64,000 bases of DNA from Oscillospiraceae bacterium (lineage in GTDB: Bacteria; Bacillota; Clostridia; Oscillospirales; JAAYXM01). The notes under the pieces are model-generated. The model did not search any database. It saw only the letters and a list, made by a program, of their open reading frames with translations, and had not been told where the DNA came from. The stretch covers positions 2,820 through 66,819 of the forward strand of contig JAFQME010000024.1 of NCBI GenBank assembly GCA_017421025.1, written 5' to 3'. Numbering within the stretch: position 1 is the stretch's first letter; each line of letters opens with the position of its first letter. Made by a program: the position numbers and the translations under genes. Positions 8,089 to 18,637 of this stretch are shown here, in pieces.

Positions 8089-9144
8089 ATGGGAAGACGG
8101 CGCGATTTTGATCTTTTGCGCGTGATTTGCTCGATTGCAGTTGTTTATCTCCATGTTGCGGCCCCTGCTTTGCGGCAGACGGCGAACATGGGTGTTTGGC
8201 ATGTGTCCAATTTTTTGACCGCTGTTTGTACTGCGGCAGTCCCGCTCTTTTTCATGATTTCGGGTGCTTTGGCACTTGGCAGCGATAAGACGGCTGATGT
8301 CGGCGATTTGTTGAAACGCAGGCTGTGGCGGATTGCTGTCCCGTTTGTTGTGTGGAGTGCGATTGCAGTGGGCTGTCTCTATTTGCGTGACGGCAAAACC
8401 GTGGCATACGGTGCGTTGGTGGCGGCTATGGTCCGCCCGGTCATCACCCCGTACTGGTTTTTGTATGCATTCCTTTCCATCACCATGCTCACTCCGCTTC
8501 TGCGCCGCTTGGTAGCAGCACTGGATGAGCGAGGCTGGAAGTATTTGTTGGGATTGTGGCTGGTTTTCAGTGTGTGTTCTTCCACCCTGCGTGGATTCAT
8601 GTCGTATTCTGCCGGACAGTGGTTTGGTTGGTATGCTCCGTATTCGCTCTCGTTTCTTGGGGGGATGCTGGGATACTATTTGCTTGGGCATTGGCTGGCA
8701 AATCTGAAAGTGACCGTAAAGGCTTGGAAGTTTGGGTTGGTTGCTTTGGTATCCGTGCTTGTCATTGCAATCGGCACACGCTGGGCATCCATTCGAATCG
8801 GGGAGTATTCCGAACAGTTTAAGAGTTATCTTGCTCTGCCGGTTGTGGTTCTTGCTGTGAGTCTGTTTTTGCTTGCACGTGTGTTGTGGGAGACAAAAAC
8901 AAGCGGAAAGGTTTTGGGAAAACTTGCGGGTGCAAGTTTTGGGGTATATCTCTCCCATCCGATTCTGATGGATATCATCCGCCGGGCGGCAAGCGGCGAG
9001 ACGTTGCTTCAGATTACGACGCTGCCGATTCAAGCCGTGTATTTCCTTGTGGTTGTGGCAGCCAGTGTGTTGCTTTCGCTCATCATACAGGAACTGCCAG
9101 GATTGCGGTATCTGCTTTTGGGAATTCGGAGAAAAAAGGGTTGA
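8089..9144 (+). CDS. Acyltransferase-3 family membrane O-acyltransferase
   Basis: N-terminal RRRDFDLLRVICSIAVVYLHV motif and about 10 hydrophobic helices. Start moved from track TTG 8041 to ATG 8089 (SD GAGGTGA). An extended -10 TGgTATAAT lies at 8062..8070. Confidence 0.8.
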   Translation: MGRRRDFDLLRVICSIAVVYLHVAAPALRQTANMGVWHVSNFLTAVCTAAVPLFFMISGALALGSDKTADVGDLLKRRLWRIAVPFVVWSAIAVGCLYLRDGKTVAYGALVAAMVRPVITPYWFLYAFLSITMLTPLLRRLVAALDERGWKYLLGLWLVFSVCSSTLRGFMSYSAGQWFGWYAPYSLSFLGGMLGYYLLGHWLANLKVTVKAWKFGLVALVSVLVIAIGTRWASIRIGEYSEQFKSYLALPVVVLAVSLFLLARVLWETKTSGKVLGKLAGASFGVYLSHPILMDIIRRAASGETLLQITTLPIQAVYFLVVVAASVLLSLIIQELPGLRYLLLGIRRKKG

Positions 9145-9199
9145 CTTTTAACGGTGGGGGGCATACAATGACCTTACACACAAGAAAGAGGTGTATTTG

Positions 9200-10012
9200 A
9201 TGCAAAAATTTCAGGAAAAGATGAAACTGTTTTATGACAACGAGGTCATCAACTGGCACGAACACGTGTGGTTCAATGCGGACCGCTCAGGGCTCAACTG
9301 GGCGCATTGTGACAAGTTGGTGGAGTCGGTAAATGCAATGGGAATTGACAAGACCGTGGTTTCCAACCCGGTTACTTGGGACCGCTACTGTAAGCCCGAG
9401 GACTTCCGCTTTGCAAACGACACCGTGCTTGAGGCAATCAAGAAATACCCGAAAGAATTGGCGGGGATGTGCTTTGTCAATGCGGGCTGGAGAGACGAGG
9501 CAATTGCCGAAATCCAGCGCTGCTATGATGCTGGAATGTTGGGAATTAAGCTGTATCACCAGTATTTTATCAACGATACCGTTTTGTTCCCGATCATTGA
9601 GAAGTGCATTGAGCTTGACATTCCGATTCTGGTGCACGCAGGCAAACTCACCGTCAATCCGTTGGAGCAGCCGCATATTTCGGACGGCACACATTTTGCC
9701 GATGTGGCAAAGCGTTATCCGGATGCGCACTTTATTATGGCGCATATCACCGGCGGCGGCGACTGGCAGTGGCAGCTTCGTGCTATTCGTGACTGCAAGA
9801 ACGTGGTCACCGACATGAGCGGCAGTGTTTGCGATCGCCCGGTTTTGGAGCAGACGGTTGCGACTTTGGGTGCGGAGAGACTCCTCTTCGGCACCGACAT
9901 TTCGGTAGGTCCGTGCGTGGGCAAGATGCTCTGCGCTGACCTGTCCGAGGAAGACAAAAAGACCATTCTTGCAGGTACTGCGTACCAGCGTTTTTTGAGA
10001 AAGGGTGTGTAA
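9200..10012 (+). CDS. Amidohydrolase-2 (TIM-barrel metal-dependent hydrolase) family protein
   Basis: Motifs: NWHEHVW (HxH), GIKLYH, ILVHAG, MAHITGGGD, LLFGTD. ATG 9200 with SD AGAGGTG; the track starts at GTG 9191. Confidence 0.75.
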   Translation: MQKFQEKMKLFYDNEVINWHEHVWFNADRSGLNWAHCDKLVESVNAMGIDKTVVSNPVTWDRYCKPEDFRFANDTVLEAIKKYPKELAGMCFVNAGWRDEAIAEIQRCYDAGMLGIKLYHQYFINDTVLFPIIEKCIELDIPILVHAGKLTVNPLEQPHISDGTHFADVAKRYPDAHFIMAHITGGGDWQWQLRAIRDCKNVVTDMSGSVCDRPVLEQTVATLGAERLLFGTDISVGPCVGKMLCADLSEEDKKTILAGTAYQRFLRKGV

Positions 10013-10016
10013 CGGT

Positions 10017-10787
10017 ATGAGAATCATCGATACTTGCGGATATATCGGGAATTGGCCGTTCCGCCGACTCACCCGCAACACGGCGGAAGAAGTAGACAAG
10101 CTCATGCAGGAATTGGGCGCAGATACCTTGTTTGTTGCGTCCTCCGATGCGATTTGCTATAAAAACCCGCAGGACGGCAACGAGGCGCTCTTTGAAGCAC
10201 TCGATGGCAAGAACTTTGCTACTAAGTTCTTGAAGTTTGCGGTCATCCGTCCGGGTTATCCGGGCTGGAAGCATGACATTGATGTTTGCATCAAGGAACT
10301 GGGCTTCTTTGGCTTGGAAATCGCTCCGATGTACCACGATCTTACACAAACGGAAATGGCAGAGTTTTACGCTTATGCGAGTGAACTGGGGGTCCCGGTT
10401 CGCATCAACACCGAGTTTGAAAACTGGCGTCAGCACCACCGCTTGGATGACCACCGTGTCATCAATGCGGGCATGCTGGTCCCCATGCTGAAAGCGGGCG
10501 ATGCTCCGCTCATCGTAAACAGCCTGAGCGGCCCGAATGCAGAGTTCGGAGAGATTGCGAAAGCTCGTGGGAATATCTTTGTGGATATCAACCGTGTGGA
10601 CAGCTTTGCGTCCAACAGCTTGGAATACATGGCAGAGGTCATGGGCACCGATGCACTGTGCGTCGGCACGCGTGCTCCGTTTAGCTATGGCGACGGCAAT
10701 CTGGTAAAGATCATGTTCACTAAGATGTTTAGTGACGAAGACCGTGAGAAAATCGCTTGGAAGAATATTTCCAAAATCATCAAATAA
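10017..10787 (+). CDS. Amidohydrolase-related protein, paired with the upstream gene
   Basis: 257 aa from ATG 10017, 5 nt after the upstream stop. MRIIDTCGYIGNWPF start resembles amidohydrolase-2 relatives that lack the HxH motif. The function call is weak. Confidence 0.6.
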   Translation: MRIIDTCGYIGNWPFRRLTRNTAEEVDKLMQELGADTLFVASSDAICYKNPQDGNEALFEALDGKNFATKFLKFAVIRPGYPGWKHDIDVCIKELGFFGLEIAPMYHDLTQTEMAEFYAYASELGVPVRINTEFENWRQHHRLDDHRVINAGMLVPMLKAGDAPLIVNSLSGPNAEFGEIAKARGNIFVDINRVDSFASNSLEYMAEVMGTDALCVGTRAPFSYGDGNLVKIMFTKMFSDEDREKIAWKNISKIIK

Positions 10788-10838
10788 GGCGGAATCGGAA
10801 AACGACGATCCGCTATATTTGGATCTGTTGTAAGAATT

Positions 10839-10875
10839 AAAAAGCTCGACTGTGAAAACAGTCGAGCTTTTTTTA
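10839..10875. terminator. Bidirectional rho-independent terminator
   Basis: aaaaagctcgactg-tgaaaa-cagtcgagcttttttt, between convergent genes. Confidence 0.85.
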
Positions 10876-11112
10876 TTGGAGGAGTTCGCCCAGTGTGCGG
10901 TCTAAGACTTTTGAGAATGCAAGAAACTCAATGTCAGTGACGAAGCGTTTGCCGCACTCAATTCGCTGGATGGCGTTTTTGTCAATGTCAAGACCATATA
11001 ATTGAAGGCGGTCGGCAAGTTCACGCTGAGAAATCTTGAGTTCTTTACGAAAACGTGCTATGTTTTTGCCGCAAAGATTATTGCTGCCGTCTGAAGATTT
11101 ATTGATAAACAT
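10873..11112 (-). CDS. XRE-family helix-turn-helix transcriptional regulator
   Basis: 79 aa. HTH_3 pattern: IARFRKELKISQRELADRLQLYGLDIDKNAIQRIECGKR. Confidence 0.85.
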   Translation of the reverse strand: MFINKSSDGSNNLCGKNIARFRKELKISQRELADRLQLYGLDIDKNAIQRIECGKRFVTDIEFLAFSKVLDRTLGELLQ

Positions 11113-11228
11113 ATAATTCCCTCACTTGACATTTAGTGCTTGTCAACAAGAAAATTATATGCTATAATAAAACAAAGAATGACATTCACTGAATGTCATT
11201 CTGATGGGAAATCATAAATTCTGTGCGC

Positions 11229-11459
11229 TCAGTCTTCTTCTAACAGTTTTGCGGGTGGAATGTCGAGGACTTGTGCAATTTTGAACAGGGTTTCGAGCGA
11301 GATACCACGCACGGTTCCCGTGCCTTCCACCTGCGCAAGGAAATTGACGCTTTTTCCGATGAGTTCTGCAAAGGCTTCCTGCGTGTAACCCGCTTTCTTT
11401 CGGTGGTATGCAATTTTCAGCCCCATTGTGATATAGCGCTCGGCAAATTCGGTTTTCAT
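11229..11459 (-). CDS. XRE-family helix-turn-helix transcriptional regulator
   Basis: 76 aa. IAYHRKKAGYTQEAFAELIGKSVNFLAQVEG. SD GGAGGCGAGGCG lies upstream of the ATG. Confidence 0.85.
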   Translation of the reverse strand: MKTEFAERYITMGLKIAYHRKKAGYTQEAFAELIGKSVNFLAQVEGTGTVRGISLETLFKIAQVLDIPPAKLLEED

Positions 11460-11594
11460 CGCCTCGCCTCCTTTGTTTGGTATTATTGTATCAACAAACG
11501 GGGGCGACTATAATTTATTCAAAGTATATTTTTATTTACTTTAAGAATAATATGATATATAATAAATCAAGAAAAAATTGTAGGGGTGTGCAGG

Positions 11595-12080
11595 ATGGGG
11601 GAAACGGTTTGCTGTGTGTTTGGGCATCGGAAGATAGAAGTCACCGAGGAGTTGCGGGCGAGAGTGCGGTGTGCGGTGCGGCGACTGGTTGTCGATGAGG
11701 GTGTGGACACGATTTTATTTGGCAGTAAAAGCCGGTTTGACGATTTGTGTCACGAGGTTGTGAGCGAGGAACGAAGTGCGTTTCCGCATCTCAAACGAGT
11801 TTATGTCCGTGCGGAGTTTCCGTATCTTACAAAGCAGTACACCGAGTATTTGCTGGAATCCTATGAAGAAACCTATTTCCCGCAGGGATTGGAACGTGCC
11901 GGACATGCGGTGTATGTGGAGCGGAATTTTGAAATGATTCGGCGCAGTCAGTTTTGTCTGATTTATTATGATCCATTGTATTCCCCTCGTGGGCGAAAGA
12001 GTGGGACAAAAATCGCTTACGATTATGCGAAGAAACAGGAGAGAGAGATCATCAATTTGTTCCCAAAGGGCGGTACTTGA
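11595..12080 (+). CDS. DUF1273/SLOG-like protein (YoqJ-type)
   Basis: 161 aa from ATG 11595. CCVFGHRKI...VDTILFGSKSRFDDLC resembles the DUF1273 Rossmann-like fold. Recognition is by eye only. Confidence 0.5.
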   Translation: MGETVCCVFGHRKIEVTEELRARVRCAVRRLVVDEGVDTILFGSKSRFDDLCHEVVSEERSAFPHLKRVYVRAEFPYLTKQYTEYLLESYEETYFPQGLERAGHAVYVERNFEMIRRSQFCLIYYDPLYSPRGRKSGTKIAYDYAKKQEREIINLFPKGGT

Positions 12081-12096
12081 AGTACCGCCCTTTTTA
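12068..12096 (+). terminator. Rho-independent terminator (stop codon lies in the loop)
   Basis: gggcggtact-tga-agtaccgccc followed by ttttt. Confidence 0.8.
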
Positions 12097-12105
12097 TGGT
12101 ATGAT
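12077..12105 (+). promoter_or_regulatory. Putative promoter for the PHP-mntP-(Cys-tail proteins)-rSAM gene string
   Basis: TTGAAG (12077..12082), 17-nt spacer, TATGAT (12100..12105) with TGg extended -10. Overlaps the preceding terminator. Confidence 0.4.
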
Positions 12106-12125
12106 AGCCAAAGAGGTGAAATAGA

Positions 12126-12833
12126 ATGTATCGATATGAAACCCATTTGCACACCTATCCTGTGAGCAGATGTGCAAAGGCGGGGGTACGTGAGACACTG
12201 GATTTTTACAAGAGTCTTGATTATGATGGGGTGTTTCTCACCAATCATTTTTTGGATGGAAACATCAATCTTGACCGAGACCTGTCGTTTGAGAAACAGA
12301 TGGAGTTTTATCTGTCGGATTATGAGGAGGCGCTCGCTTACGGAAAAGAAATTGGGCTGCGTGTGTTTTTTGCACCTGAGATTTCCTATGCGGGCACTGA
12401 TTTTTTAATTTACGGCTTTCTGCCGCAGTGGTACCTGGACCATCCCGAGATTTTGGAGATGGACAAACGAAGTGAACTGGAATTTCTCATGGCAGAGGGG
12501 GCAACTGTGATTCATGCGCACCCGTACCGTGAGGCGGACTACATTGACCATATTCGGTTATATCCGAGAAGTGTGCACGGTGTGGAGGTGTTAAACACCT
12601 GCCGCACGGATTTGGAAAACCAAATGGCGGAGGCGTATGCAACGGCGTACGGACTCCTCAGATTTGCAGGAAGCGACAACCATTTCGGCAGCGGTATGAA
12701 ACGTCTTGCCGGGATGTGCTCGGAAACTCCGATTCGAGATGAGCGGGATTTTGCAGAGCGTGTCCTGAAAAGCCAAATGCAACTTTTCACATTGGAAAGG
12801 GACGAGGAGACTTGGACATTCAATTTGTATTAA
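12126..12833 (+). CDS. PHP-domain (histidinol-phosphatase-like) metal-dependent phosphoesterase
   Basis: 235 aa. N-terminal YETHLHTYPVSRCA (HxH motif), later VIHAHPYRE and GSDNH. Confidence 0.75.
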   Translation: MYRYETHLHTYPVSRCAKAGVRETLDFYKSLDYDGVFLTNHFLDGNINLDRDLSFEKQMEFYLSDYEEALAYGKEIGLRVFFAPEISYAGTDFLIYGFLPQWYLDHPEILEMDKRSELEFLMAEGATVIHAHPYREADYIDHIRLYPRSVHGVEVLNTCRTDLENQMAEAYATAYGLLRFAGSDNHFGSGMKRLAGMCSETPIRDERDFAERVLKSQMQLFTLERDEETWTFNLY

Positions 12834-13384
12834 GCAGCGCTCTCTTGGGATTTGCACTTGCGATGGACGCATTTTCGGTCTCCCTTGCAAACGGGCTCAA
12901 TGAGCCGTGCATGAAACTTCCGAAACTACTCGGGATTGCCGGGGTGTTTGCGGCGTTTCAGGCGCTGATGCCCATGATTGGATGGGTGTGTGTTCACACC
13001 ATGGTGGAGAAATTCACCGTGTTTGCCGGGTGGATTCCGTATATCGCACTTGTGCTTCTCTGCTACATCGGCGGGAATATGATTTACGAGGGCTTGCGAG
13101 GGGACTGTGACGAATGTCTCAAAGTCGGGCTTTTGGCGCTGTTGGGGCAGGGGATTGCAACCTCGATTGACGCACTTTCGGTGGGCTTTACCATCTCGGA
13201 GTACGGTGTGTTGGACGCAGTTTTAGCCTCCCTCATCATTGCGGCGGTCACGTTTGTGGTGTGTACTGCCGGGGGGTTCATCGGAAAGAGTGCGGGGACC
13301 AAGCTTGCAGGAAAGGCGAATATCCTCGGCGGCGTGATTCTGGTCGCCATCGGAATCAAGATTTTTTTAGACGGAGTGTTATAA
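12812..13384 (+). CDS. mntP: Manganese efflux pump MntP
   Basis: 190 aa, 6 hydrophobic helices. Duplicated DAFSV/DALSVG motifs: FALAMDAFSVSLANG and ATSIDALSVGFT. TTG start overlaps the PHP gene by 22 nt. Confidence 0.8.
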   Translation: MDIQFVLSSALLGFALAMDAFSVSLANGLNEPCMKLPKLLGIAGVFAAFQALMPMIGWVCVHTMVEKFTVFAGWIPYIALVLLCYIGGNMIYEGLRGDCDECLKVGLLALLGQGIATSIDALSVGFTISEYGVLDAVLASLIIAAVTFVVCTAGGFIGKSAGTKLAGKANILGGVILVAIGIKIFLDGVL

Positions 13385-13402: not shown

Positions 13403-14581
13403 ATGGGTGAAGGTGATTTGACAATACTCGTCACAATTGCGGGCATTGCTTTGATTGTGTATGGGATGAAGAAAAAGAATCAGAAGATTGTGGTGTTTTC
13501 TGCCATTGGTTTGGCGCTTGCTTACGTTGCGTATTTCTGCGCAATCAATGAGATTCCGTGGGCGCTTCGGAAAATCCGGGGTGAGGATTTCATCGGACAG
13601 TGGATGGCGTTATTCGGGATTTTGATGCTCGGCTCACTTGCTGTGACATTGATTCTCTCGCTTGTGGAACTGTTCGTGTGTCTTGGTGCGGCGAAGAGCA
13701 AGGCGTATAGCAGTGAGGATTTGATGCTTCTGCGCAAGCTTGACCGCTATCAAATGGTTGGGTATTACCTGCTGAAAGGCAGACTGGACGGAATCTTGCA
13801 ATGCAAATATTCAAAAAAGAAGGGTGGACGGGTTGAACTCAACCCGAATTGGACCGAGCAAGTAAGACGCACGTATTGCGAGACGAATCCGCAGATCAAG
13901 CAGATTGTGGCATATATTGCAGGCGCATCCAAGGAAAACAACGAGGAAAGAATTTATGCCACCAAAAACACGAAAACTTTATCTGCCATTGTGAAGAAGG
14001 TAGATATCACATCCGGACGTGGCAGGAAATTGATCGTCAAATTCATTCGGAAAGCGAAACCGATTTCTTTGGCGGTGTTGTTTGGACTTGCAGTCGGCGG
14101 TTATTTTGTTGGGTATACGAAACTTCTGATGGGTCTGTATCGTGGTAAAGCGGTGGGAGGCTTGGTGGGGACATTGTTGGTGCTGGCACCAATGTTTACG
14201 ACCATGTGCTATGCCATCAACCGTGGGATTTACGATGCAATGGGTTTTTTGATCAAGCGAAGTCTTGACCGTCAATCAAAACGATTCAAGGGCGTTGAGA
14301 AACCCTTCGAATGTGAGTTCGATGCGAACTTGACCGACGAAGAAAAGGCCGGTATTTTGCGAGCGTATGTGATGAGTGGCGATTTGAAGCGCTACACCAA
14401 TACGGAAGAAGACAAACGGTTTTTGACCTATGTGCTCGGCTCGGTGGTTGTGGCACAAGCGGCAGCGGCAAGGGCGGTAGCAGCGGCAAAGGCGGCGGCA
14501 AGAGCGTCGTCTTCCGGCGGCGGATGCAGTGGCTGCAGCAGTTGCAGCAGTTGTGGTGGCTGCGGCGGCTGTGGTGATTAA
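13403..14581 (+). CDS. Polytopic membrane protein, paralog A, with C-terminal Cys-x-x ladder (...GGGCSGCSSCSSCGGCGGCGD)
   Basis: 392 aa. SD AGGGGGA. About 5 hydrophobic helices. Blocks shared with B and C: INEIPWALRKIRGEDF, DLMLLRKLDRY..GYYLLKGRLDGIL, GGYFVGYTKLLMGLYRGK, LRAYVM. An Ala-rich stretch precedes the tail. I recognise no known family. Confidence 0.9.
   Translation: MGEGDLTILVTIAGIALIVYGMKKKNQKIVVFSAIGLALAYVAYFCAINEIPWALRKIRGEDFIGQWMALFGILMLGSLAVTLILSLVELFVCLGAAKSKAYSSEDLMLLRKLDRYQMVGYYLLKGRLDGILQCKYSKKKGGRVELNPNWTEQVRRTYCETNPQIKQIVAYIAGASKENNEERIYATKNTKTLSAIVKKVDITSGRGRKLIVKFIRKAKPISLAVLFGLAVGGYFVGYTKLLMGLYRGKAVGGLVGTLLVLAPMFTTMCYAINRGIYDAMGFLIKRSLDRQSKRFKGVEKPFECEFDANLTDEEKAGILRAYVMSGDLKRYTNTEEDKRFLTYVLGSVVVAQAAAARAVAAAKAAARASSSGGGCSGCSSCSSCGGCGGCGD
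14507..14578 (+). repeat. Coding triplet-periodic Cys tail of paralog A (6 Cys at 3-residue spacing, ends CGD)
   Basis: tcg tct tcc ggc ggc gga tgc agt ggc tgc agc agt tgc agc agt tgt ggt ggc tgc ggc ggc tgt ggt gat. Confidence 0.95.
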
Positions 14582-14607
14582 GGAATAGAAATTGGGGGGG
14601 ATTTGAG

Positions 14608-16146
14608 ATGAAAGTATTAAAAGGAATTGCGTGTACGGTGCTCTCGATTGTGTTTCTCGCACTGGTTGGATTGCTGATCCTCTTTCCGTTTGCGCTGATG
14701 GATAACGGTGAGAGTTGGAAAGAAGCATTGATTGGTGCTGTGGTGATTGCCGGGGTATGCGCCGGCATTGGCGTGCTTTTGTGGAAGTTGTCCCACACTG
14801 CAATTCAGGTGTGCGGACTCATTCTTGCGCTTTGTGTTGTTATTGGATTGCCTATCGGTTTGTTTGAAAGCGAATCGGTGGGGGGCACAACACTCTTTGT
14901 GACGATCATTGGAATTGTATTGATCGTGCTTGGAGTGACAAACCAAAAGAAGCTGCGTGTGGTGTTTTCCGGCATCGGATTAGCACTCTCTTATGTTGCC
15001 GCATACTGCGCGGTCAATGAAATCCCGTGGGCGATTCGAAAAATCCGGGGTGAGGAGTTTCTCGGACAATGGACCCTGTTGTTTGTGATTTTGATGCTGG
15101 TATCGCTTGCAATCACCGCTTTACTTGCACTCAATACGACATACAAACATCGTGATGAGGCAAAGGACAAGCTGTATTTTGACGGGGATTTGATGATCTT
15201 ACGCAAGTTTGACCGTTATCGCAAAATTGGATATTACATCTTAAAAGCAAGACTGCACGGGATTTTGCAGTACGAGTATCAAGAGGACAAGGGTGGCGTT
15301 GTCAGATTTAACCCGGATTTCACCGAGGAAGAAAAGCGTGCGTATTGCGAGGTAAATCCGCAGGTCAAGCGGATTTTGGCATACGTTGTGGAAAAGCACT
15401 TTGAGGAAGAGCTGGAAAGTGAACTTAGCTCGTTGGTCAAGGAACAAGGTTTGCTTGATGGATGGAATCAATACAAAGCAAACCTCGAGGAACGAGTTTA
15501 TACCACCCGAAACACGAAGTGGGTGCGTGTGGCAGACATTGTATCGAACGTGGAAGCAAAGCCGGAAATTCAGAGCGACGGCGGAACATTTGCAAGCAAA
15601 ATCATTGAGCGAATGAGAACGGTTTTCAAGAGTGTATTTTGGAGTCTTGTGCTCGGCGGCTATTTTGTTGGGTATACCAAGCTTTTGATGGGCCTGCATC
15701 GTGGCAAAGAAGTGGGCAATCTGACCGCACTGCTGCTTTTGGGGGCACCGATCATCGCAGCGATTGCATATTTTATCAATCGCTGGATTTGTGAGAAGCT
15801 GATGGATTGGTTTGTGGCAAGCATCATCAAACACAAAACAAAACACTTTAAGGACATGGAAACACTCTTTAAGACCCACAACTTTGATTCCATTCCGACC
15901 ACCGAAGAGATGACCCGTGTTTTGAGAGCATATGTGCTCTATGACTACGATGCGAAGTATTACACTGCGGCGGAAGAGGACGGGTTGTTTGCAACCGATG
16001 TGTTCAAGTCGGTAGTGGCAGCACAGGTGGCTGCAGCTGCGGCTGCGGCGGCAAAACGGTCGTCGTCTTCCGATGGCGGCTGCAGCGGTTGTGGCGGCTG
16101 TGGCGGCTGCGGTGGCTGCGGCGGTTGTGGCGGTTGTGGAGATTAA
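14608..16146 (+). CDS. Polytopic membrane protein, paralog B, with C-terminal (CGG)n-CGD tail
   Basis: 512 aa. SD GGGGGGA. Has an extra ~100-aa N-terminal hydrophobic extension, then the same conserved blocks: INEIPWAIRKIRGEEF, DLMILRKFDRY, GGYFVGYTKLLMGLHRGKEVGNL, LRAYVL. Ends VAAQVAAAAAAAAKRSSSSDGGCSGCGGCGGCGGCGGCGGCGD. Confidence 0.9.
   Translation: MKVLKGIACTVLSIVFLALVGLLILFPFALMDNGESWKEALIGAVVIAGVCAGIGVLLWKLSHTAIQVCGLILALCVVIGLPIGLFESESVGGTTLFVTIIGIVLIVLGVTNQKKLRVVFSGIGLALSYVAAYCAVNEIPWAIRKIRGEEFLGQWTLLFVILMLVSLAITALLALNTTYKHRDEAKDKLYFDGDLMILRKFDRYRKIGYYILKARLHGILQYEYQEDKGGVVRFNPDFTEEEKRAYCEVNPQVKRILAYVVEKHFEEELESELSSLVKEQGLLDGWNQYKANLEERVYTTRNTKWVRVADIVSNVEAKPEIQSDGGTFASKIIERMRTVFKSVFWSLVLGGYFVGYTKLLMGLHRGKEVGNLTALLLLGAPIIAAIAYFINRWICEKLMDWFVASIIKHKTKHFKDMETLFKTHNFDSIPTTEEMTRVLRAYVLYDYDAKYYTAAEEDGLFATDVFKSVVAAQVAAAAAAAAKRSSSSDGGCSGCGGCGGCGGCGGCGGCGD
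16060..16143 (+). repeat. Coding Cys-Gly-Gly tail of paralog B (7 Cys)
   Basis: 16081 onward reads tgc agc ggt tgt ggc ggc tgt ggc ggc tgc ggt ggc tgc ggc ggt tgt ggc ggt tgt gga gat taa. Synonymous codons are mixed. Confidence 0.95.
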
Positions 16147-16171
16147 AACCAGGATGGTATCGGAGGATAAA

Positions 16172-17602
16172 ATGGACGGGGAAAAGAGAACGATTTGGAC
16201 GAGGATGAAAGAATTCTGTTGCAATTCGAATGTTCAAGTGGTCGTGGGCGGTATCGTATTTTTTGCTTTGATTTTCTTTTTCTGCGCAAACGAGGATATT
16301 GTGCAAGATGAGACCTTTTCGCTGACGATAGCGGCTACGATAGTCGGTGCAGGCTTGATAGTTGCCGGGGTTATTGGCAAACGAAACAGACTTGCGACCT
16401 TTTCTGCAATTTCGTTGGGATTGTATTATGTGATTTGGATTGGCGCAATCAATGAGGTCCCGTCTGTGATCCGAAAGATCCAAGGAGAGGAGTTCTTGGC
16501 GCTTTGGCCTTTCTTGTTTGCTTGCATTGTGGGGCTTTCACTTCTTGTGACAATGCGGGTATGCAAACGTTATTTTCATCGGAAGAGCGCCGAGGCGAAT
16601 GAGAAGATTTATTCGGACGGGGATTTGATGATCCTGCTTGGGTTTGATCGATACGATCGGGTCGGCTATTACCTGTTCAAGGCAAGACTGCATGGGATTT
16701 TGACGTATGAGAAAACAGCGGATGGCATCACTGTCACACTGAATCCTGCACTCAGTGAATCGGAAAAACGGGCGTACTGTGCAGAGAATCCGAATGTAAT
16801 GCAGATTTTGCGTTACATCGTGGAACGGGACTTCGCCGTGAAATGCGAGGAAGAGTACAAAGCGATTTTGGATGAGTTCAAGAGGAATCCCAAAACGCAA
16901 CGCCAGATTGCGGATCGATTCTTGGAGAGGATGGAGGAGCGTCTCTATACCACAAAAGAGGTGCAACCGCTTCCGACCGATACGGTTGTGAGGAGCGTGA
17001 ATCTGAATCTGCGGATTCAGAGTGATGGCGGGAAATTTATTGAAACAATCGTCAAGAATGTAAAGCGCATTGTAAAGAATATCTGGATCAGCTTCTTGAT
17101 CGGTGGATATTCGATTGGGCTTTCAAAACTTTTGATGGGCATACACCGTGGCAAAGAAGTGGGCAATTTGGTGTTTTGCATGTTCTGGCTCGGAGCAATC
17201 GCCATAGGTGTTTGCTATTGGGGAAATAAAAAGATTGTGGAAAATGCGTACCAACAGTTTTTGTGCAGCCTCAAGGAGTACAAATCAAAGAATTTTCATC
17301 AGATTCAAGAAATGCTGGATCATTTTGATTTCGACTCAATTCCGACTGAGGATGAGGCGAAACGGGTTTTGAGGGCGTACGTTTTGCGTGATCGCAGCAA
17401 GTGGACACCGCTCAAACCGGAAGATCCGGTTCGTTTTTCGAGTGATATTTTCCGTGCGGTGGTTGTGGCACATGCAATCGCACAGATGCCATCCAAAACA
17501 ACTTCCAACGACGCCGGCGGCTGCGGCTGTGGAGGCTGTGGTGGCTGTGGCGGTTGCGGCGGATGCGGTGGCTGCGGCGGTTGCGGCGGTTGTGGAGATT
17601 AA
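16172..17602 (+). CDS. Polytopic membrane protein, paralog C, with C-terminal (CGG)n-CGD tail
   Basis: 476 aa from ATG 16172 (SD GGAGG 6 nt upstream). The track start 16073 is an out-of-frame read through the tail repeat of B. Blocks: INEVPSVIRKIQGEEF, DLMILLGFDRY, GGYSIGLSKLLMGIHRGKEVGNL, LRAYVL. Ends ...NDAGGCGCGGCGGCGGCGGCGGCGGCGGCGD. Confidence 0.88.
   Translation: MDGEKRTIWTRMKEFCCNSNVQVVVGGIVFFALIFFFCANEDIVQDETFSLTIAATIVGAGLIVAGVIGKRNRLATFSAISLGLYYVIWIGAINEVPSVIRKIQGEEFLALWPFLFACIVGLSLLVTMRVCKRYFHRKSAEANEKIYSDGDLMILLGFDRYDRVGYYLFKARLHGILTYEKTADGITVTLNPALSESEKRAYCAENPNVMQILRYIVERDFAVKCEEEYKAILDEFKRNPKTQRQIADRFLERMEERLYTTKEVQPLPTDTVVRSVNLNLRIQSDGGKFIETIVKNVKRIVKNIWISFLIGGYSIGLSKLLMGIHRGKEVGNLVFCMFWLGAIAIGVCYWGNKKIVENAYQQFLCSLKEYKSKNFHQIQEMLDHFDFDSIPTEDEAKRVLRAYVLRDRSKWTPLKPEDPVRFSSDIFRAVVVAHAIAQMPSKTTSNDAGGCGCGGCGGCGGCGGCGGCGGCGGCGD
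17516..17599 (+). repeat. Coding Cys-Gly-Gly tail of paralog C (9 Cys)
   Basis: ggc ggc tgc ggc tgt gga ggc tgt ggt ggc tgt ggc ggt tgc ggc gga tgc ggt ggc tgc ggc ggt tgc ggc ggt tgt gga gat. Confidence 0.95.
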
Positions 17603-17605
17603 GCG

Positions 17606-18637
17606 ATGAGTTGTCGAAATAAAAACAGATTGCTGCTGCAATTTCATCTCACGGGAAGATGCAACCTGCGCTGCAAGCATTGTTACCGTACCGAGGGGGA
17701 CACCGAGCCCCTGAAGTTTGAGGATATTGTTGCGGTGGTGGAGCAGTATCAAGAACTGCGAAGAACATACAATGCGGACAAGGGCATTCGACGTCGGGGA
17801 CATATCAACATCACGGGCGGGGAGCCGTTTATCCGCAAAGATATCAAAGAGATTTTACGCTACTTGGGAGAGAATCGTACCGATTTTTCGTATGGGGTAC
17901 TCTCCAACGGCTCGTTTTTGGATGACGAGATGATTGCGATTTTGAAAGAGACCGAAGTGTCTTTTGTTCAGCTCAGCATTGACGGAGACCAAAAGACACA
18001 CGATGCTTTGCGTGCGCCGGGAGATTACAAGCGGGTGTTTGAGGTGGCAAAACGGCTGGAGAAGAACAAAATCCGGACGTATATCAGTTTTACCGCAAAC
18101 AAGGAAAACTTCCGATTTTTGCCCGGAGTTGCGAGAGCGTGCAGGAGAAATCGGATCACCAAGTTGTGGTCGGACCGTTTGGTGCCGATCGGGAATGGAC
18201 AGGAGATTGCTTCCCTTGCCATTTCAAAAAACGAGCTGTTAGACTATGTCAGGACCATGAAACTTGCTCAGGGGAATTTTTTGACCAAACTCTTTTATCC
18301 CAAAACGCAGGTGACCATGAACCGTGCGTTGCAGTTTTTGCAGAGTGACGGATTGGTATACAGCTGCAGTGCGGGGGACAGTCTCATTACGGTGGATGAA
18401 TTCGGACAGGTCATGCCCTGCCGCAGAATGCCGATTGTTTGCGGGAATGTGTTTGATTCCACCTTGAGTGAGATTTATTACAAGCACGAGGTGTTTCAGG
18501 CGCTGCGGAAACAAAAGATTCCGCAGGAATGTCGCTCCTGTGCGTATCAATCCCTTTGCAAAGGCGGGGCGAAATGTCAAAGCCATGCGGTATACGGGGA
18601 CTACACGTGCGCTGATCCTGCGTGCCCGCTCATATAA
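17606..18637 (+). CDS. Radical SAM enzyme with C-terminal SPASM-type auxiliary Fe-S domain
   Basis: 343 aa. The ATG is 3 nt after the stop of paralog C. CNLRCKHC (CxxxCxxC) at residues 19-26, GGEP motif (ITGGEPFI), and a C-terminal Cys cluster CSAGD..GQVMPC...CGNV...CRSCAYQSLCKGGAKC. No N-terminal extension is available for an RRE/PqqD-like domain. Confidence 0.9.
   Translation: MSCRNKNRLLLQFHLTGRCNLRCKHCYRTEGDTEPLKFEDIVAVVEQYQELRRTYNADKGIRRRGHINITGGEPFIRKDIKEILRYLGENRTDFSYGVLSNGSFLDDEMIAILKETEVSFVQLSIDGDQKTHDALRAPGDYKRVFEVAKRLEKNKIRTYISFTANKENFRFLPGVARACRRNRITKLWSDRLVPIGNGQEIASLAISKNELLDYVRTMKLAQGNFLTKLFYPKTQVTMNRALQFLQSDGLVYSCSAGDSLITVDEFGQVMPCRRMPIVCGNVFDSTLSEIYYKHEVFQALRKQKIPQECRSCAYQSLCKGGAKCQSHAVYGDYTCADPACPLI

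Follow-up and report, generated by a model that had tools for sequence, protein, structure and literature searches.

The TIGR04222 proteins are membrane proteins of unknown function that carry Ser/Gly tails interspersed with cysteines, and a 2025 survey described them as putative substrates of O2-dependent MNIO enzymes, to which they are often but loosely linked (PMC12452194). A third of the genomes with TIGR04222 relatives lack an MNIO, and an association with radical S-adenosylmethionine (SAM) enzymes is not mentioned in that survey (PMC12452194). Conversion of Cys to 5-thiooxazole, by an MNIO or by a radical SAM enzyme, yields copper-binding products (PMC11626156). Here we analyzed a 64,000-nucleotide stretch of DNA from an Oscillospiraceae bacterium (contig JAFQME010000024.1; the whole stretch is termed the window), in which three tandem genes encode membrane proteins ending in a ladder of cysteines and are followed directly by a gene for a radical SAM/SPASM enzyme. 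The features under study are the following:

13403..14581, + strand: paralog A, open reading frame (ORF) for a 392-amino-acid polytopic membrane protein assigned to the TIGR04222 superfamily, with a Cys-ladder tail
14525..14578, + strand: tail A, CSGCSSCSSCGGCGGCGD; 6 Cys, Ser codons all AGY
14608..16146, + strand: paralog B, ORF for a 512-amino-acid membrane protein with a Cys-ladder tail; used as query in recovering the family
16081..16143, + strand: tail B, CSGCGGCGGCGGCGGCGGCGD; 7 Cys
16154..17602, + strand: paralog C, ORF for a membrane protein of 482 amino acids from ATG 16154, with a Cys-ladder tail
ATG 16172, + strand: alternative start of paralog C, giving 476 amino acids; GGAGG lies 7 nucleotides upstream of this ATG
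17522..17599, + strand: tail C, CGCGGCGGCGGCGGCGGCGGCGGCGD; 9 Cys
17606..18637, + strand: radical SAM/SPASM enzyme of 343 amino acids with Pfam Radical_SAM and SPASM matches, starting 3 nucleotides past the stop codon of paralog C

These genes represent an unnamed, radical SAM-linked branch of TIGR04222 Cys-tail membrane proteins that is widespread in gut Clostridia, and we propose, with moderate confidence, that the enzyme modifies the ladder of the tail proteins.

Membrane-protein family and conservation of its tails

None of the three paralogs gave a match at E≤0.01 in scans against Pfam and NCBIfam. The curated TIGR04222 cut-off of 43 bits was missed by paralog A (15.1 bits, E 0.014) and by the family member P0009 (9.6 bits), and paralogs B and C did not match this model. 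A word search with paralog B retrieved only 10 proteins; searching 1.84 billion cluster representatives with a hidden Markov model profile that excluded the tail yielded 102 proteins, 37 of them at E <1e-30, and a scan of a metagenome collection with the same profile gave no match. The weak matches of the profile were proteins of about 300 amino acids, and 9 of the 10 tested pass the TIGR04222 cut-off. Alignment of two tail-less alignments, of the window family and of TIGR04222, by hhalign resulted in a probability of 99% and an E value of 6.5e-18 over 227 columns, and the tails of the TIGR04222 relatives likewise finish in CGGCGG(D), with irregular Cys spacing. Together, the cut-off passers, the hhalign result and the common tail end place the window proteins, as judged from these profiles, in a divergent branch of the TIGR04222 superfamily that lies outside it by the curated cut-off. 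The carboxy-terminal low-complexity Gly/Ser tail interspersed with Cys that characterizes the superfamily is present as well.

Both groups share an I-x-G-x-x-F motif ahead of a membrane helix, a soluble helix/β-hairpin domain, a membrane hairpin with KLxxGIxxxKPV and a disordered, Cys-studded Gly/Ser tail closing with CGGCG(G/D). They differ in the ladder, which in the window family is regularly spaced (two residues in 86% of the gaps) and ends in CGD, whereas TIGR04222 tails are irregular and end in CGGCGG(D); in the hosts, which are anaerobic Clostridia for the window family and mainly Actinomycetota for TIGR04222; and in the partner enzyme, which is a radical SAM/SPASM protein here and an MNIO in the published pairing. 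Consistently, no MNIO (DUF692/MbnB_TglH_ChrH) domain was found among the ten flanking genes of the window, and the precomputed Pfam annotation of the homologous loci shows Radical_SAM/SPASM where an MNIO would be the partner. A canonical TIGR04222 protein (P0082, locus L010) carries a weak precomputed match to DUF2207_C, which hints at a broader superfamily whose membrane-hairpin members have Gly-rich tails at the carboxy terminus. The contigs encoding the canonical TIGR04222 proteins P0082 and P0089 are too short to include neighboring genes.

The three window paralogs lie in tandem on the same strand, all terminate in Cys-Gly-Asp-TAA and have tails composed of C, G, S and D only. An earlier note on this DNA, made from the sequence, had described these tails as built from mixed synonymous codons, with 6, 7 or 9 Cys and a shared C-G-D end; all of this was confirmed, with TGC/TGT and GGC/GGT/GGA intermixed in all three tails and the codons of tail B exactly as quoted there. 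Tandem Repeats Finder reported the tails as period-9 arrays with matches of only 72–80%, and the longest perfect period-9 run comprised 11 matched bases in each. The Ala/Val-rich segment that the note had placed before all tails is evident as a helix for A and B and less clear for C (VVVAHAIAQMPSK). Likewise, the periodicity, which it had called almost perfect, holds for most of the family: across the 40 family sequences with a terminal ladder, 202 of the 236 Cys–Cys gaps (86%) span two residues, 23 span three and a few have other lengths, and it is not strict in the window itself, where tail C opens with C-G-C.

The 40 ladders contain 4–9 Cys, most commonly 7, and of the residues other than Cys, Gly makes up 62% and Ser 30%. 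The exact end CGGCGD occurs in 32 of them, and the terminus of the window tails recurs in about 40 distant homologs, which goes beyond chance. To assess selection at the codon level, we compared the last six codons of 12 tails for which DNA was available, from loci whose protein bodies are 28–42% identical. Within the final C-G-G-C-G-D codons, all six third positions vary, whereas the first and second positions, twelve in total, are without exception invariant. With third positions free and first and second positions fixed, purifying selection on the tail peptide and its terminus is strongly supported, as the earlier note had supposed. Frequent frame-breaks or tail losses, which it had named as speaking for a neutral extension, were not seen: apparent frame-breaks affect about 3 sequences (P0012, P0048, P0056) and 4 full-length members lack the tail, against 40 intact ladders.

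The linked radical SAM/SPASM enzyme

In each of the nine tail-bearing loci for which sequence was available (the window, L001, L002, L004, L005, L006, L007, L008 and L009), the last tail gene is directly followed by a radical SAM/SPASM gene, at a spacing of 0–8 nucleotides or overlapping. Among these loci are that of the distinct P0055 subfamily (L008) and that of the TIGR04222-like protein P0066 (L009). Two tail-less relatives, P0035 and P0020, are followed by other genes, with a radical SAM gene in neither case, and a Cys-ladder ORF is absent from all 80 loci inspected for SPASM enzymes of greater distance (≤38% identity). This strict pairing argues for the ladder as the substrate of the enzyme. 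The enzymes of the tail loci, with 42–90% identity to each other, are far better conserved than the partner bodies with 28–42%. In the literature we found no description of a radical SAM/SPASM enzyme paired with Cys-ladder membrane proteins.

We found no further genes conserved around the tail–enzyme pair. Zinc-ribbon proteins and proteins of 660–725 amino acids, encoded near some loci, were considered and are shared only between the close relatives L001 and L006. In the window, genes for a PHP-domain protein and for the manganese-efflux protein MntP (12126..13384, same strand) are located directly upstream, MntP ending 19 nucleotides before paralog A; the syntenic locus L003 preserves this gene order, which has no counterpart in the other loci. 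A link to metal handling via MntP is possible and would be confined to one lineage. A genome scan with the tail pattern gave at least one locus among the matches listed. Locus L007 stems from a goat-rectum genome assembly assigned to Oscillospiraceae.

The window enzyme carries its CX3CX2C motif at residues 19–26 and the seven invariant SPASM cysteines. Among PDB structures it matches CteB best (E 6.5e-13), with an alignment that begins at CteB residue 99; judged from this alignment and from the motif start, it has no amino-terminal RiPP recognition element (RRE; RiPP, a peptide made by the ribosome and modified after translation), a dedicated RRE model not having been run. The enzyme scored far below every NCBIfam cut-off, with 138 bits for TIGR04053, 125 for ACGX, 116 for AhbD, 114 for SbtM and 100 for PapB. 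The ACGX system (TIGR04340) has a cut-off of 400 bits, and the Ala-Cys-Gly-Xaa repeats that go with it do not occur in the tails. For SbtM, a radical SAM thio(seleno)oxazole maturase (TIGR04082), the cut-off is 350 bits, and the alignment covered only profile positions 200–499, the window enzyme lacking an amino-terminal extension of about 200 amino acids that SbtM has. Anaerobic sulfatase-maturating enzymes (anSME) target a C/S-x-P/A-x-R motif in a sulfatase. The tails consist of C, G, S and D only, the partner is no sulfatase and the PDB match to anSME is at E 4e-8, so that this class does not apply. The surrounding enzyme clade comprises 1,392 clusters (at 90% identity) at E≤1e-60, whose most specific name is "radical SAM protein [Clostridia bacterium]".

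Compared with described systems, the locus resembles those of sactipeptides and ranthipeptides (CteB/SCIFF, PapB/freyrasin, QhpD) in that a SPASM radical SAM gene adjoins a Cys-rich target, the thioether-forming CteB is the closest solved structure and the PapB model gives 100 bits. Furthermore, the invariant Asp near Cys in the window tails recalls the Cys-to-Asp thioethers that PapB and QhpD reportedly make. The differences are the following: the window targets are membrane proteins of 390–510 amino acids and not short leader–core precursors, the enzyme has no RRE, protease and exporter are missing, acceptor residues in the window tails are almost only Gly and Ser, and no curated cut-off was reached. 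The heterocycloanthracin/sonorensin peptides (TIGR03601) have a Cys-Xaa-Xaa repeat unit with whole-unit insertions and deletions between variants (Haft 2009, PMC2674419). These are, however, short secreted peptides matured by a cyclodehydratase and a dehydrogenase, whereas the window ladder forms the end of a membrane protein, and the window tails reach 13.7 and 8.5 bits against a cut-off of 35. No gene for a YcaO-type cyclodehydratase was found among the window neighbors, which leaves a distant locus possible. Finally, for the MNIO-dependent bufferins and for SbtM, the division between MNIO and radical SAM enzymes parallels the two branches of Cys-tail proteins; bufferins differ in being Sec-exported small proteins.

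At the ends of the tail genes in the window (17591..17608), L001 (about 13205..13230), L005, L006, L007 and L009, the codons for the terminal Gly-Asp also act as translation signals of the enzyme gene. GGAG is located 8 nucleotides before ATG 17606 in the window, and in L001b, L005 and L007 the enzyme ORF is able to start at a GTG within GGT GAC. For L009, the enzyme ATG overlaps the TGA stop codon of the tail gene. A Shine–Dalgarno constraint as the main cause of the Gly-Asp conservation was considered and rejected, as non-terminal paralogs and TIGR04222 relatives keep this end and the third positions vary. In L002 the enzyme gene (8450..9485) was called with only 296 amino acids, and translation begun at the ATG immediately behind the tail stop gives ...NRLLLQF, as in the other enzymes; the called gene probably misses its amino terminus through a frameshift or an assembly error.

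Predicted topology and proposed modification of the ladder

The AlphaFold2 model of paralog A (mean predicted local distance difference test score 83, predicted template modeling score 0.70) is all-helical with a small helix/β-hairpin middle domain and a disordered tail. Foldseek searches of the PDB with the full model and with the middle domain gave no match below E 0.3, the top, non-significant matches of the middle domain being mostly MarR/ArsR winged helices. Many family members (P0004, P0005, P0006, P0008, P0014 and others) carry an amino-terminal zinc ribbon, which the window paralogs A, B and C lack, and in L001 (9142..9885) and L006 (253..921) a gene located just upstream codes for a separate membrane protein with a zinc ribbon. 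A cytoplasmic location is expected of zinc ribbons. From the ribbon to the conserved IRKIQGEDF motif we counted one, three or five hydrophobic helices, followed by one more into the middle domain. With the ribbon in the cytoplasm, this odd helix count and the further helix would put the IRKIQGEDF motif outside, and the middle domain, the stretch behind the membrane hairpin and the tail would be cytoplasmic, in agreement with the distribution of Lys and Arg residues. A cytoplasmic tail would be accessible to the radical SAM enzyme. The Ala-rich helix before the tail was considered as an additional membrane helix, which would bring the tail outside; a crossing appears unlikely, as this helix is short or charged in many members, e.g. 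in C, P0008, P0010 and P0055. The topology predicted here sets the window family apart from TIGR04222, whose tails were predicted to be periplasmic (PMC12452194).

Based on these properties, we propose a two-component protein-modification module, in which the three paralogous membrane proteins would serve as substrates of the translationally coupled enzyme. The substrate ladder would be the disordered carboxy-terminal (Cys-[Gly/Ser]2)n stretch with its near-invariant CGGCGD-COOH end, on which the enzyme would act in the cytoplasm, at the ladder cysteines and possibly at Gly Cα or at the terminal Asp. Recognition could proceed through the conserved terminus, through docking on the cytoplasmic winged-helix-like domain of the substrate, which would replace the missing RRE, or through both. 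The product would be a membrane-tethered array with a plausible role in metal binding or redox chemistry, carrying either Cys-derived thioether cross-links, to Gly/Ser Cα or the terminal Asp and of the kind found in sacti- and ranthipeptides, or 5-thiooxazole-type heterocycles. As both an MNIO and a radical SAM enzyme have been reported to form 5-thiooxazole from Cys (PMC11626156), the replacement of an O2-dependent by an O2-independent enzyme between the two branches is an attractive possibility, and the system would be the oxygen-independent counterpart of the TIGR04222 pairing with MNIO. In its most specific form, this proposal states that in gut Clostridia an RRE-less radical SAM/SPASM enzyme installs 5-thiooxazole-type heterocycles or thioether bridges on the cytoplasmic tails of full-length membrane proteins, uses their winged-helix-like domain as recognition element and produces a membrane-anchored metal-binding ladder, as an oxygen-independent twin of the bufferin-type MNIO/TIGR04222 chemistry; we offer this full version only tentatively and with considerable doubt.

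TIGR04222-type Cys-tail proteins number in the thousands, and the loose MNIO link is the sole published lead to their function. A sister branch of strict anaerobes, locked to a radical SAM/SPASM enzyme, is an independent argument for the Cys tail as a modification substrate, and the suggested aerobic/anaerobic enzyme replacement would be comparable to that of the formylglycine-generating enzyme (FGE) and anSME. If the proposal is true, a common gut-microbiome enzyme with about 1,400 clusters gains a substrate, and a further case is added to the RiPP-like modifications on full-length proteins, here on a true membrane protein. With two genes and an invariant six-residue terminus, the module is minimal and tractable.

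Several points weigh against a modification of the ladder by the enzyme. The enzyme scores best against SPASM families whose functions are unrelated to each other (TIGR04053, ACGX, AhbD, NirJ, SbtM, PapB), and its chemistry is therefore not readable from its sequence. Gene linkage by itself does not prove an enzyme–substrate relation, and the gene context covers 9 of possibly >1,000 systems. The cytoplasmic placement of the tail relies on hydropathy and on the zinc-ribbon logic, and the published prediction for TIGR04222 tails is the opposite one. Moreover, TIGR04222 relatives with a reported MNIO partner or without a partner enzyme have conserved the CGGCG end as well. Being common to branches with different enzymes or none, its conservation need not reflect recognition by the radical SAM enzyme, and this end may serve a function of the mature protein, e.g. 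as a metal site, and not only enzyme recognition. The roles of the ladder as enzyme substrate and as metal ligand may both be true.

The strongest alternative dispenses with modification: the ladder would be an unmodified thiolate array, metallothionein-like or Fe–S-binding, that binds Zn, Cu or Fe on the inner side of the membrane, and the enzyme would either receive a cluster or electrons from the tail or act on another substrate of the same pathway. Cys-Xaa-Xaa-Cys spacing with only Gly or Ser between the cysteines is a classic metal-binding geometry, with which the ladders are compatible. The MntP gene that precedes the tail genes in the window and in L003 would fit such a role, as would the CGGCG end kept in TIGR04222 relatives although a third of their genomes have no MNIO (PMC12452194). 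We nevertheless consider this explanation unlikely, since the radical SAM gene accompanies the tail in 9/9 tail loci and 0/2 tail-less ones and is translationally coupled to it, the vast majority of SPASM enzymes that have a peptide or protein as partner are modifying enzymes and the MntP linkage is found in one lineage only.

Slightly more doubtful still is a tail that would be a true RiPP core, cleaved and released as a Cys-rich peptide, e.g. an antimicrobial or a metallophore, with the membrane protein acting as a giant leader and perhaps as exporter. Variable-copy Cys-Xaa-Xaa repeats are known from heterocycloanthracin precursors (PMC2674419), the tail gives a weak TIGR03601 match, and the several paralogs per enzyme in the window and in L001 are typical of RiPP clusters. 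A protease, an ABC exporter or an immunity gene is, however, not conserved near the pair, and the ladder is preceded by a variable Ala-rich helix followed by Ser/Gly/Asp instead of a conserved cleavage motif. That the body of 300–500 amino acids is conserved and has homologs in the TIGR04222 proteins argues for a role of the protein as a whole.

The weakest alternative, that the tails are functionless low-complexity extensions arising by neutral slippage of a TGC-GGC-GGC unit, could draw on the variation of 4–9 Cys among orthologs and paralogs, the narrow TGY-RGY-RGY codon set with Ser one transition from Gly and the seemingly homogenized tail ends of tandem paralogs, but it is highly improbable and effectively refuted by the codon-position and ladder counts, the terminus being fixed as protein across homologs of 25–40% identity while all synonymous sites vary and intact ladders far outnumber frame-breaks, in addition to the strict linkage to a dedicated enzyme.

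Codon usage of the ladders and similarity of tandem tail ends

The codon mixing was analyzed for 11 tails against two nulls, 5,000 synonymous permutations and draws from the codon usage of the gene bodies. The longest perfect period-9 runs summed to 110 in the observed tails, compared with 99 for the permuted tails and 92 for the gene-body draws. The tails are thus slightly more repetitive than both nulls, not less, and their codons are mixed no more strongly than by a random choice among synonyms. As perfect repeats show no deficit, we rejected an active scrambling of codons against slippage. The suggestion in the earlier note that synonymous mixing may suppress slippage was consequently not supported; the codon set is narrow and whole-unit changes still occur between orthologs: paralog A and its ortholog P0002 in the syntenic locus L003 are 76% identical and have 6 and 9 Cys, respectively.

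In these 11 tails the ladder follows the pattern (TGY-RGY-RGY)n. All 45 of its Ser codons are AGY, compared with 31% AGY in the gene bodies, and its Gly codons are GGY in 83% of cases versus 50% in the bodies, with GGG used once in 110. AGY is a single transition away from GGY, and this exclusive use makes the ladder Ser seem derived from Gly by single transitions. Ser-rich units are located in the amino-terminal part of the ladder, and the last two units are invariably Gly units. Unlike the AGY codons of the ladder itself (14525..14578), the linker Ser residues just upstream use TCN (14507..14515, 16060..16071).

The last nine codons of the tails are near-identical between tandem paralogs. 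B and C share 8 of the 9 (16117..16146, 17573..17602) despite bodies that are only about 40% identical, and the tail ends of L001a and L001b (genes 10001..11653 and 11684..13213) share 7 of 9. Among the 41 between-genome pairs, the maximum was six shared codons of nine and the mean 3.6. As the sharing between tandem paralogs exceeds that of all 41 between-genome pairs, it suggests gene conversion of the tail ends.

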